A stretch of 25,289 nt of DNA from a virus (taxonomy: Duplodnaviria > Heunggongvirae > Uroviricota > Caudoviricetes), in IMG/VR virus record IMGVR_UViG_2531839265_000001, positions 1 through 25,289 of that record; one strand, given 5' to 3'. Each line of letters opens with the position of its first letter. The stretch's first letter is position 1. Under the pieces are notes generated by a model. The model worked only from the letters and a program-made list of their open reading frames with translations. It had not been told where the DNA came from and ran no database searches. Shown piece after piece: positions 15,967-18,659 of this stretch. Both the position numbers and the translations under genes were made by a program.

Positions 15967-16219
15967 TGGTTATCTCCTTTTTCCATGTTTTCAGACTTTC
16001 ACCACAGAACGGGCAAAATGAGACTCGAATAGGTGATTTAGAAAATTCACCAGAACGCAACATCACCAAATCAGGGGCGCGAGTTAAATTCTCATTCCAG
16101 ATTTTGTATATCAGCAGACCTTTTCGCATCGTGTATTCAGCATCATGCTCAAGGGCTTTTGCCAGTGCCGCACATGGTTCTATCTGATTGCCATTAACCT
16201 GACATTTTGATTCGCTCAC
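15953..16219 (-). CDS. hypothetical protein (88 aa) with CPFCG zinc-ribbon-like motif
   Basis: Track ORF; overlaps neighbours by a few codons in an operon-like array. Confidence 0.35.
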   Translation of the reverse strand: MSESKCQVNGNQIEPCAALAKALEHDAEYTMRKGLLIYKIWNENLTRAPDLVMLRSGEFSKSPIRVSFCPFCGESLKTWKKEITSEQH

Positions 16220-16611
16220 AGCATCACCTCCTGAAATTTCCCCTGATAAAACGCCAGCACTCGCTGCATAACCTCACTCTTCCGGCACTCGCGACAGATT
16301 ATGTTCAGGTGTCTGTCGTAGCGGCGTATTTCTCCGTCTGGTAACTTTCGAATCAGTGTCTGGTCAGTTGTTTTCTCCGGCGTCTTACGCCATTCACGAT
16401 ACGCCTGCTCTGATGCAAAAACACCGTATACCCCGGACATGTATAAATCACCACAAGCCAGTACATCCACAAGGCAGCGCCGGACCGAATGCCAGCCAGC
16501 TCCCGTCGCTCTCTCCAGTTGCGACATCGTCATGCGTCCATTTTTACGTACCAATCCGATAATTCGTGCCTTCAGCTCTTCCCGCTGTTCGGGTGTAAAA
16601 GGTTTCGCCAT
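16216..16611 (-). CDS. hypothetical protein (131 aa)
   Basis: Track ORF MAKPFTPEQREELKARIIGLVRKNGRMTMSQLERATGAGWHSVRRCL... with an HTH-like stretch. Confidence 0.4.
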   Translation of the reverse strand: MAKPFTPEQREELKARIIGLVRKNGRMTMSQLERATGAGWHSVRRCLVDVLACGDLYMSGVYGVFASEQAYREWRKTPEKTTDQTLIRKLPDGEIRRYDRHLNIICRECRKSEVMQRVLAFYQGKFQEVML

Positions 16612-16640: not shown

Positions 16641-17102
16641 TCAAACAAAACCTGCCGCTTTCCGGCGTTCATATTCCTGTTTCAGCAACTCAATTGGTGT
16701 TGGCCCCGACGGGCGTTCTGGTGCTGCCAGTTGCCGCCGTACGGGCGGAACGCTGAAGCCGTCACCAACATGCTTTGCCCATTTCGCCAGTTGCCGTTCT
16801 GCAAGTCGTTTTAACTCCCCTTCGGTCATCTGGCGCTCAATCCCCTTTGAACGCATCTCGAGGCAAATGTGATACAGCACAGGCTGAGACCACGGGTATT
16901 TATCGCTTCCGTCGTATCGCCAGGACTCGTTGCGCCAGCGTCGGTACTCCTCCATCACAGCATCCACCGTCAGACCGAATGGATTGGCCCCGCTTTCCGA
17001 AATCAGCGCCACAAACTCAGCCAGGTCCGGAGGCCATGTTTCACCCGCCCGGCAGCGGTTCATGCACTGGCGGCAGACCTGACGGATTTGCTGCTCAGTC
17101 AT
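16641..17102 (-). CDS. replication protein P-like helicase loader (lambda P homolog)
   Basis: From ATG at 17102: MTEQQIRQVCRQCMNRCRAGETWPPDLAEFVAL...DKYPWSQPVLYHICLEMRSKGIERQMTEGELKRLAERQL aligns to the lambda P C-terminal two-thirds. The ATG overlaps the upstream stop as ATGACTGA. Confidence 0.65.
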   Translation of the reverse strand: MTEQQIRQVCRQCMNRCRAGETWPPDLAEFVALISESGANPFGLTVDAVMEEYRRWRNESWRYDGSDKYPWSQPVLYHICLEMRSKGIERQMTEGELKRLAERQLAKWAKHVGDGFSVPPVRRQLAAPERPSGPTPIELLKQEYERRKAAGFV

Positions 17103-18136
17103 CGCGCCAATCTGTGCAATCCAGAGCTTCGAAGGTGCGGCCCCGTTCTTCTGGGTCCAGCGGTTCGAATAAACCTCCCCCATGAGTTCCCACAGCTTCC
17201 ACGCCGTTTCCGTCGCTGATAAATCCGTTTTCACGTTCCCACTGCTCACGTGCTGCCCGAATTTCCTGAACTGCCCGTGATGCGGTGCCACCTGGTGCTG
17301 CTGCATGGTTTACTCCCTTGCTGACTGGTTTAACCTGCGCCCTGACGTGATTTACGTGACGGGCGAATTTCTGCTCCCACTGAATCTGTGTAAACACTTT
17401 GCCCTCATCACTCCAGTAATCCCGGAATGCGGCAAGTTCAGCAGGTGTAAATTCTGGTTCCGGCAAAGCCATCCCCCACAACGCAGCCCGCCGTCGAAAA
17501 TCCGGCGACGGATACCAGTCATCGGTCATCGGAAATTTTCCGATGGGCTCTCTCAGGCCATCCAGGAATACAGGGGACGCCGCCTGTAACGACAAAACCT
17601 CCCGCTCACTGGTCGGAGCACTCTCGCGTGCGTTATGTGTGGGGTTTAGATCTTTGGGTTCCTTTGGGTTCCGTGATCCGTTTTTGGGTGTCTTTAATGG
17701 AAAATTTGGATCTCTTTGGTTGTTTTTCATGCAGCAAAGAGTTCCGTTTTTGGGGCTGTTTTGTGCTGAAACATAACCATTTTCGGTACTGTTTTTATTA
17801 ACAGCACCAATTTTACCCACCTTTAAAGACTCCCATTTTTTGGGTGTATTCAGGCTCGGCAACACTTTCTTCTACGCCGATAAGTCGGTACACCACAATT
17901 TGCTTTGTTCTGCCTTTTCTCTCACCGGTATCAACAATTAACCCAATCTCCATCAGGTGTCGTAAGCTGTCCTGCACAGTCTTTTTGTTCAGTTCCGTTA
18001 CTTCTGCCAGTGCAGATACAGACGGGTATGCACACAAATCGGCACCGCACATATCAGCAAGCCAGGTCAATACTGACTTACTGGATGAACTGCCGGTTTT
18101 CACCTTTTTAGCCCATCGTAGTGCATCGATACTCAT
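17095..18136 (-). CDS. replication initiator: N-terminal HTH domain and C-terminal DnaT-like domain, apparently split at a T6/A6 run (17836-17841)
   Basis: Track ORF 17813..18211 has an HTH domain (MSIDALRWAKKVKTGSSSSKSVLTWLADMCGADLCAYPSVSALAEVTELNKKTVQDSL). ORF 17095..17865 has a Pro/Lys/Asn-rich linker and IGKFPMTDDWYPSPDFRRRAALWGMALPEPEFTPAELAAFRDYWSDEGKVFTQIQWEQKFARHV, matching the E. coli DnaT C-terminal domain. Removing one A from the run fuses the frames; two separate genes cannot be excluded. Confidence 0.5.
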
Positions 18137-18659
18137 ACGAACCCCAGACAGATATTTGTTTATCTGCAAAGTAATGTTGGTATTGCTGACGATACGCGTG
18201 CTTGAAAGCAATAGCTTTTTCTATAAGCTCGTCAGTCTCACGTTCCACAACAGCTGGATCCGCAAAAAGCAGCCCGGACTCCACCACATCGCCATATTCT
18301 TTGTTTAACCCGGCGATCATGTACGTAATGCTTTTTCCGTCAGTAATTTCACAATACAACCTGAAATCGCTGATCCGGATAGCCTCCATAATTGCCGGAA
18401 TCAGCGCCGTGAATTTTTCCCGCTTATCCCTGGTGTCGATAGCTTTCCAGCGTTCAAATATTTTCACCCGGTTAACGCCCAGTGCCCGTTGATCAACCGC
18501 GCCATCATCAAACGTGACGCGTTGAACATCAATGTTCGGGCGTTCTTTCAGAGCCCAGAATGCTTCCGTGATTAATATCGTCGCCTGCTCCTGTGTCATT
18601 CCTAGTCGGCATACCCAGGTATCCAGAGCCTCACAAACCTGTTCAGGGGTGATTTTCAT
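18108..18659 (-). CDS. hypothetical protein (183 aa) at the cII position downstream of dicC
   Basis: Track ORF; ATG at 18659 overlaps the last codons of dicC. Confidence 0.45.
   Translation of the reverse strand: MKITPEQVCEALDTWVCRLGMTQEQATILITEAFWALKERPNIDVQRVTFDDGAVDQRALGVNRVKIFERWKAIDTRDKREKFTALIPAIMEAIRISDFRLYCEITDGKSITYMIAGLNKEYGDVVESGLLFADPAVVERETDELIEKAIAFKHAYRQQYQHYFADKQISVWGSYEYRCTTMG

Follow-up and report, generated by a model that had tools for sequence, protein, structure and literature searches.

A lambda-type replication module in a Rac-like prophage with a long, probably dual-coding junction between the initiator and helicase loader genes

The DNA studied here, called the window, is a stretch of 25,289 nucleotides (nt) from the Caudoviricetes record IMGVR_UViG_2531839265_000001 of IMG/VR. 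Between positions 16641 and 18136 the list of open reading frames (ORFs) contains two co-oriented genes on the minus strand, a pair of replication initiator and helicase loader of the phage lambda type (coordinates in Table 1). A preliminary description of this region, made from the letters alone, had proposed a replication module that pairs a DnaT-like initiator with a loader of the lambda P family, and this pairing was borne out by matches to the Pfam families DnaT (PF17948) and Phage_lambda_P (PF06992). The region is probably an ordinary, widespread replication module of the lambda type in a Rac-like lambdoid prophage and as such of a known kind. The more interesting result is the junction between the two genes, which is inconsistently annotated and probably codes in two frames; in the searchable literature we found no description of such a conserved dual-coding junction of about 200 nt. 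Our reading as a whole is a lambda-type module with a loader of 221 amino acids (aa) that starts at 17306, a 212-nt overlap read in two frames and an initiator that is inactivated in this copy, and we give it a probability of about 0.7.

The downstream gene encodes the loader. It scored 60.4 bits against Phage_lambda_P (cut-off 26) with residues 56-188 on model positions 28-161, and in hhalign its residues 84-221 aligned to lambda P 96-233 with a probability of 99.7% (E=9e-26). In lambda P the residues 96-233 cover the end of domain II and domains III and IV (PMC12661323), and the region of domains III-IV is the one in contact with DnaB in the solved structures of both proteins together. On sequence grounds, the window protein is predicted to be a DnaB-binding helicase loader of the lambda P type. 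The preliminary description had limited the sequence match to the C-terminal part of lambda P, in agreement with phmmer (80-203) and hhalign (96-233). It had also called the loader shortened, which was not upheld. The loader frame is open for another 204 bases upstream of the ATG chosen there, up to the ATG of the 221-aa form, and this longer form is favoured by invariant upstream residues, a conserved ATG with a Shine-Dalgarno site, the AlphaFold model and the Foldseek search.

When the 221-aa ORF was used as the query for homologues, many proteins of 212-223 aa were recovered with 100% coverage and 49-98% identity. Among them, proteins of 221-223 aa (54-98% identity over the entire ORF) are already present at NCBI as 'replication protein', and shorter calls of about 180, 153 and 140 aa were also returned; the loaders of the close relatives are annotated with 140 or 153 aa, which we judge too short. 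We compared 32 loci from Escherichia, Citrobacter, Enterobacter, Klebsiella, Pluralibacter, Pectobacterium, Erwinia, Rahnella, Serratia, Yersinia and others. In 32 of 32 an ATG is located 23-36 codons upstream of an AW-x-LWE motif, preceded by a GGAGG/GGGAG-type site. The mean anti-Shine-Dalgarno duplex at this ATG was -9.35 kcal/mol, compared to an in-gene background of -2.8 +/- 2.3. The alignments also showed that W50, K53, N54, G55, P58 and W62, which all precede Met69, are invariant.

The alignment-based AlphaFold model of the loader had a mean predicted local distance difference test score (pLDDT) of 74. Helices were predicted at 29-46, 48-54, 60-67 and 71-86 with a pLDDT of 76-83, so that a start at Met69, giving 153 aa, would sever a folded helical domain. 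From the model it is likely that residues 29-86 form a distinct helical N-terminal domain; residues 1-26 had a pLDDT below 50 and are probably disordered. When the model was searched against the PDB with Foldseek, only lambda P chains were significant. The best structural match was lambda P in its complex with DnaB, with 218 columns on 9oa1_Z, the only lambda P chain in that complex to be resolved in full (E=1.5e-5). Colinearity of the N-terminal domain with lambda P domain II (about 30-119) is suggested solely by this fold search, and residues 1-68 alone had no Pfam match at E<=10. Taken together, these results make it likely that the loader is a full-length lambda-P-type protein of normal length with an N-terminal domain of its own.

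Two later starts of the loader were considered. The preliminary description had proposed a truncated P protein of 153 aa that starts at the ATG of the octamer ATGACTGA and is translationally coupled to the initiator, whose tail would derive from the N-terminus of an ancestral P, the O/P boundary having shifted. This agrees with the NCBI Prokaryotic Genome Annotation Pipeline (PGAP), which in E. coli relatives calls a 346-aa 'DnaT-like ssDNA-binding domain-containing protein' and a 153-aa 'replication protein P' (P gene 462 nt) with an overlap of 8 nt. In addition, phmmer starts at lambda P residue 80 with query residue 69, and a BLASTP comparison of the tail with lambda P 30-81 gave E=7e-4. 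However, all six invariant residues lie upstream of Met69, the confidently predicted helices between 29 and 67 would be lost, and the Pfam match already begins at residue 56. Position 69 is an ATG in just 22 of the 32 loci and its Shine-Dalgarno pairing is at background level (-4.0 kcal/mol), and the tail, which has no Pfam match, reached a probability of only 0.7% as a profile against the lambda P family. We therefore regard the truncated form as improbable. The octamer itself is present as described, but the coupling read into it is not supported by an ATG that is lacking in ten loci and has a weak Shine-Dalgarno site; this ATG is most likely an internal Met codon of the loader. The other start is Met42 (MGEVYSNRW...), which would give a protein of about 180 aa and an overlap of just 89 nt, with the upstream frame open but untranslated. 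PGAP calls this start in Citrobacter, Klebsiella, Brenneria and other genera, and many database entries have 180-181 aa. Of the 32 loci, 30 have an ATG at position 42, where the Shine-Dalgarno-like site is moderate (-5.6 kcal/mol), and the residues that this start would remove include the very low-confidence segment 1-26 and the variable segment 1-34. Nevertheless, the AW-x-LWE motif with its invariant W39 is upstream of Met42, the predicted helix 29-46 spans it, position 42 is a Leu in the loci L024 and L026, the upstream ATG has a much stronger site and is present everywhere, and the loader frame is free of stops between both ATGs in every locus. A start at Met42 as the only one is unlikely, although isoforms from Met42 and from the upstream ATG could coexist. 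We continue with the 221-aa loader.

With this start, the initiator and loader genes overlap out of frame. Across the 32 loci the overlap was 149-227 nt long. Neither the loader frame nor the initiator frame had a single stop within it, compared to 117 stops in the third frame. When synonymous codons were resampled with the loader protein kept fixed, the initiator frame was open in 0.3-15% of the trials per locus. In the lambda-like loci from the same search the overlap was about 20 nt long, and in lambda and phi80 themselves it is 4 nt. For loader codons 1-34, the nucleotide identity by codon position was 0.56/0.41/0.51, the lowest value being that of the wobble position of the initiator frame. 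In the same codons an identical amino acid was encoded by the identical codon with a frequency of 0.61, compared to 0.41 outside the overlap (p=1.6e-5). Over this part, which includes the tail helix of the initiator, the initiator frame dominates the constraint, and over loader codons 35-69 the loader frame dominates. T-ending codons occurred at 0 of 74 risk sites in 16 lineages, compared to 28% at comparable sites outside the overlap. A raised third-position identity in loader codons 35-69 (0.49 versus 0.38) was discarded, as it vanished without Met/Trp codons and close pairs. Likewise, the raw product for stop avoidance, 2e-11, was not used because it is inflated, the overlap being defined by the first stop; the conservative p of about 0.03 was taken instead. 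Translation of both frames is well supported by these comparisons for the proximal 100 nt or so, and a functional role of the distal tail is plausible.

The intact initiator, as deduced from the relatives, is likely a protein of 346 aa with four parts, a winged-helix N-terminal domain, a linker, a DnaT-like domain and a tail of about 70 aa. The DnaT-like domain matched PF17948 with E=3.9e-18 and the solved DnaT chains 4ou6, 6aep and 9zbt with E~1e-19, covering DnaT residues 83-157 only, and was modelled by AlphaFold with a pLDDT of 86-93. With E. coli DnaT, the primosomal protein I of PriA-dependent restart, the window protein shares only the C-terminal three-helix bundle that binds single-stranded DNA (ssDNA). 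The N-terminal domain of DnaT (1 to about 83) and its stand-alone form of about 179 aa have no counterpart, and the phage protein has the linker and a helix-turn-helix (HTH) part in their place. Judged by sequence, the initiator is a domain relative of DnaT and not a DnaT orthologue. In the N-terminal ORF, HTH_36 was matched weakly (E=5.5e-5, 23.3 bits, under the Pfam cut-off of 25) and RP-C with E=1e-3; the Phage_rep_O domain (PF04492) gave no Pfam match in the window initiator. Of the HTH plus DnaT-like initiator announced in the preliminary description, the DnaT domain is thus clear, but the HTH match stays below the cut-off and the protein is not a single ORF in the window.

The tail of the initiator contains the conserved segment TASRAVQ(E/Q)IRAAREQW with the helix ASRAVQEIRAAREQW; in the alignment of relatives its invariant pattern is A-S-R-A-V-Q-x-I-x-x-A-x-x-x-W. 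The distal tail after the helix, which includes GLFEPLDPEERGR, is acidic and Gly-rich, has very low model confidence and is probably disordered. The tail alone had no match in Pfam at E<=10.

In the window the initiator gene is interrupted. The stretch 17095-18136 has 1042 nt, which is not a multiple of 3, and the HTH part and the DnaT part are in different frames. Where the alignment reads CCCAAAAA-C-GGG in the PPompW prophages and in strain PSJ-22, the window has AT in place of the C. The frame is lost after codon 97 and the N-terminal ORF ends at a TAA after 107 aa. All relatives that were checked have the initiator intact in a single frame of 346 aa, and the listed full-length E. coli matches all span 1495 nt, compared to the 1496-nt query. 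The window allele was found in 0 of 890 E. coli genomes that cover a 70-nt stretch around it (best full-length identity 97.1% over 69 nt), and viral contigs did not contain it in exact form either. Taken as sequenced, the initiator gene of the window is apparently a pseudogene. Since the change from C to AT shifts the frame and stops the initiator after 107 aa, the module as sequenced should be non-functional.

The same change could be a sequencing or assembly error, the initiator being intact in the organism. The change sits at a homopolymer that goes from A5 to A6, which counts against the pseudogene claim, the allele is private to this record among the E. coli genomes and viral contigs searched, and elsewhere the two genes are intact, with 96-98% identity to relatives that look functional. 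Yet the change from C to AT combines an inserted base with a substituted one, more than a mere change in homopolymer length, and defective Rac-like prophages are frequent in E. coli. An error is a real possibility, somewhat short of an even chance; it would leave the architecture unchanged and remove only the pseudogene claim. Programmed +1 frameshifting by the ribosome, or slippage of transcription along the A6 run, would yield a short HTH protein in addition to the full initiator. The site, CCC AAA AAA T, does offer an A-run where tRNA-Lys could re-pair, but every relative is single-frame with A5C at the site and a conserved recoding signal is missing. Further, an A6 run is short for efficient slippage, and no stimulatory element was seen, though none was searched for. 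Because no relative has the two-frame layout, we consider programmed frameshifting very unlikely, with next to no chance of being correct. An inactivated initiator gene remains our reading of the window as sequenced.

The preliminary description had raised the question of an iteron array within the initiator gene, and in intact relatives three copies of CCCAAAAACGG are indeed located in the linker. In the intact gene of locus L004, (A/C)CCCAAAAACGG occurs at gene positions 292, 381 and 447, between the HTH and DnaT domains. The frameshifting change falls inside the first copy, and in the 25-kb window the exact 11-mer occurs just twice, both times in the linker. Repeats were identified by exact 8-mers with the iterons of lambda and phi80 as a positive control; the method recovered these annotated iterons at gene positions of about 349-433 and 385-436, respectively. 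It also detected repeat clusters in most members of the family, at gene positions of about 160-510, and the sequences of the repeats differ with the N-terminal domain. The linker stretch 17680-17810 has an A+T content of 57-70% and adjoins a cluster of GATC sites. By analogy to lambda O and phi80 gp15, where the origin has the same placement, the linker is a probable lambda-type origin.

Table 1. Features of the replication module and their positions in the window
Feature	Position	Strand	Remarks
Helicase loader, P-like, full-length form	16641-17306	-	221 aa; stop 16641-16643
Loader residues 84-221, homologous to lambda P 96-233	16644-17057	-	hhalign
Out-of-frame overlap of 212 nt	17095-17306	-	last 70 initiator codons and first 69-70 loader codons; initiator read in the +2 frame
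Octamer ATGACTGA	17095-17102	-	initiator stop TGA and ATG that is loader codon 69
Shine-Dalgarno site AAGGGAG	17313-17319	-	6 nt before the loader ATG 17304-17306
ORF with linker, DnaT-like domain and tail	17095-17865	-	ORF list
Rest of the initiator frame, one base off the N-terminal ORF	17095-17834	-	Lys/Asn/Pro-rich linker, DnaT-like domain and tail; stop TGA 17095-17097; aligned to the intact genes of PPompW and L004
Conserved tail helix TASRAVQEIRAAREQWERE	17230-17286	-	shares its DNA with loader codons ~7-26
DnaT-like ssDNA-binding domain, three-helix bundle	17335-17535	-	PF17948, PDB DnaT chains, AlphaFold
Three GATC (Dam) sites within 61 bp	17649-17712	.	only one other place in the window reaches 3 GATC per 100 bp
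Iteron-like copy 3, exact CCCAAAAACGG	17678-17688	-	repeat search
Iteron-like copy 2, exact CCCAAAAACGG	17744-17754	-	repeat search
Iteron-like copy 1, altered by the frameshifting change	17833-17844	-	CCCAAAAACGG in intact relatives
Initiator N-terminal ORF	17813-18136	-	ATG 18136, 107 aa, stop TAA 17813-17815; winged-helix/HTH, presumed origin-binding
Frameshift site	17835-17836	-	CCCAAAAA-AT-GGG here, CCCAAAAA-C-GGG in relatives; net +1 base
Allele readings at the frameshift site	17835-17836		CCCAAAAACGGG would be the intact form, CCCAAAAAATGGG the pseudogene form

The resemblance of the initiator tail to lambda P, noticed in the preliminary description, was seen in a pairwise comparison but not at the level of families. 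In a single BLASTP comparison of the 89-aa tail with lambda P, tail residues 8-50 aligned to P 30-81 (23.1 bits). When a profile of 27 tail sequences was compared to a profile of 18 lambda P sequences, hhalign gave E=0.076 over 23 columns, and on its low probability the derivation of the tail from P was rejected. Residues 38-198 of lambda P fall on positions 1-162 of the PF06992 model. Since the loader covers model positions 28-161 from its residue 56 onward, we infer that lambda P from about residue 65 on already has its counterpart in the loader frame itself, and we conclude that the resemblance of the tail is no sign of a shifted O/P boundary. Homology of the tail to lambda O is not claimed either, as BLASTP gave a non-significant E of 0.97 and the common '...LD..TDW' ending is too short. 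Many initiator tails (17095-17130 in the window) close with '...LD-x-x-DW/R-x-D', which on the surface recalls the ending '...LD-x-NTDW' in lambda O and phi80 gp15. This likeness is probably a coincidence, because the W/R alternation at the tail end tracks a synonymous change of an Ile codon in the loader frame.

Compared to lambda, the module has the same gene order, with the initiator followed by the loader downstream of cro/cII-like genes, and in the relatives of the window the repeats are also located inside the initiator gene between its two domains. It differs from lambda in that the Phage_rep_O domain of the lambda O type is replaced by the weak HTH_36-like and the DnaT-like domains, and in that lambda O and P overlap by an ATGA only, compared to 212 nt out of frame here. 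Phage phi80 has its iterons inside gene 15, the end of gp15 is of the lambda O type (...NNTDWAYGVIR), and genes 15 and 14 overlap by 4 nt. The C-terminal half of phi80 gp14 (L049:1498-2187) is 48.8% identical to residues 93-221 of the window loader and its N-terminal half is of the lambda P type. From this apparently hybrid make-up we conclude that the loader halves are exchangeable modules. The junction in gp14 seems to be located near the segment FLPSPGQF / WPPDLAEF.

The tail of the window type together with its loader was found behind different initiators. These were initiators with a DnaT domain (L005, L006, L009, L016), a Phage_rep_O (PF04492) initiator without DnaT domain (L020), HTH_36/DnaD_N initiators (L021 and a Vibrio phage) and initiators without a Pfam domain (L022, L029, L031). 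Initiators that end in the lambda O-like NNTDW are paired with lambda-P-type N-terminal domains, with overlaps of only 4-29 nt. One of these, in E. coli GCA_029615825 (L051:2501-4079), is a DnaT-domain initiator of 276 aa ending in '...LDWNNTDWIEGV', like the C-termini of phi80 gp15 and lambda O. Its partner is a loader of 258 aa with an N-terminal half of the lambda P type, and the overlap is just 29 nt. This pairing shows that the DnaT-like domain and the loader type are independent modules. As far as these sequences tell, each type of C-terminal end in the initiator goes with a particular type of N-terminal domain in the loader, whatever the remainder of the initiator is.

The two-frame layout was also present in a Vibrio phage. 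In phage D77 (OZ195826; L048:1152-2460) the last 212 nt of an HTH_36-type initiator overlap an ORF of 219 aa that starts at ATG 1801. The first 130 residues or so of this ORF are 30% identical to the N-terminal part of the window loader, and the initiator tails are 30% identical with E=3e-5. The C-terminal half of the D77 protein showed no match to the window loader in tblastn. In the record, the loader-like ORF is annotated only from an internal Met (2134-2460), as a 'hypothetical protein' of the distal 109 codons. Altogether, 124 Vibrio phage records matched the search. An O-like initiator of Vibrio phages with an adjacent loader has been described in the context of VdhL (PMC11087808), and the loader-like ORF of D77 may be related to these VdhL loaders.

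The module is common in E. coli. At least 80% of the 1496-nt stretch was present in 907 of 5426 complete genomes. The PPompW prophages of the Stx2a phage records (LC5678xx) have the same module with 95.7% DNA identity and an intact initiator; the initiators of the relatives have 346-356 aa. In Rac-SA53, where the genes correspond to ydaU/ydaV, the DnaT domain, tail and loader are in common with the 3' half of the window at about 91% DNA identity, whereas the N-terminal domain and the linker are different. The alignment places the point of recombination immediately upstream of the DnaT domain, where the similarity resumes. K-12 Rac has a neighbourhood like that of the window, with ydaS/ydaT-like genes upstream and ydaW/DUF977 downstream. 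Its YdaU was compared as a possible homologue of the DnaT and tail part and was not similar; YdaU is a DUF1376 protein without a detectable DnaT domain or tail, and ydaU and ydaV do not overlap. YdaV is annotated as a putative ATP-binding protein, which we take to be DnaC-like, and not as a P-type loader.

Upstream of the initiator ATG at 18136, the window has a cro-like gene and a ydaT-like gene. A gene of the YdaT_toxin family (18108-18659) overlaps the initiator start by 29 nt, and a DUF977 (YdaW-like) gene (16216-16611) follows the loader after a gap of 29 nt. This Rac-type gene order around the module is conserved in relatives. The prophage as a whole is a mosaic without a close full-length match in the collection of complete E. 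coli genomes, the best of which cover only about 57-60% of window positions 1-25000 at about 92-94% identity.

Several observations weigh against our reading. For the loader, the choice of the upstream ATG was guided in part by the visible Shine-Dalgarno site, hhalign found no alignment of the N-terminal domain to lambda P domain II upstream of residue 84, and the template modelling (TM) score of the Foldseek match to lambda P was just 0.44, as is expected with flexibly linked domains. For the overlap, loader codons 35-69 show no extra synonymous constraint when Met/Trp codons are excluded (0.42 versus 0.41), so that selection on the distal tail rests only on the maintenance of the ORF, with a Fisher-type combined p of about 0.03 from 16 lineages that are not fully independent. 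The tail is predicted as a single helix of low confidence (AlphaFold pLDDT of about 57). For the origin, the three repeats are 66-90 bp apart, compared to about 20-24 bp for the four iterons of lambda, and they encode a repetitive peptide and may be coding repeats rather than binding sites. Finally, literature searches on DnaT-like phage initiators and on ydaU/ydaV revealed no functional study.

Lambda O interacts with its loader P (PMC11087808). The recognition between the two is structurally unresolved, and an engagement of O by the N-terminal lassoes of P has been put forward as speculation only (PMC12661323). By analogy, we infer that the tail of the initiator may recruit the loader through the N-terminal part of the loader. 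Initiation would then proceed as follows: the winged-helix domain would bind the repeats, the DnaT-like domain would hold the unwound ssDNA, and the tail would recruit the loader-DnaB complex via the loader's N-terminal part. As the tail and the loader N-terminus would be encoded on one DNA, recombination could not separate the partners. A possible parallel to the long tail is found in early work on lambda, which reported an O' product that reads through the O stop into the start of P and the toxicity of plasmids with O and P DNA of 35 or 62 codons (PMC3640518). Among the database proteins, some of 291-385 aa (P0024, P0083, P0107, P0108) join PF06992 with DUF1627 or DUF1376; they are probably frameshifted or mis-called initiator-loader junctions of other genomes.

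For annotation, the result means that the loader of a module present in about one sixth of the complete E. coli genomes is annotated at three lengths, 140/153, about 180 and 221 aa, of which the comparison favours the longest. Annotation pipelines that penalise long overlaps truncate the loader, in the Vibrio phage records as well. Beyond this, we tentatively propose that the junction is a dual-coding cassette of about 70 codons, found from Escherichia to Vibrio phages, in which a loader-recruiting tail and an initiator-binding loader N-terminus are held in one DNA and are inseparable by mosaic recombination. If this is true, the shared DNA would explain why one tail-plus-loader unit is found on at least three unrelated initiator types (DnaT-like, Phage_rep_O and HTH_36/DnaD_N). 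The short conserved helix and the co-varying discrete types would then offer a compact, testable system for how an initiator hands the DnaB loader to the origin.

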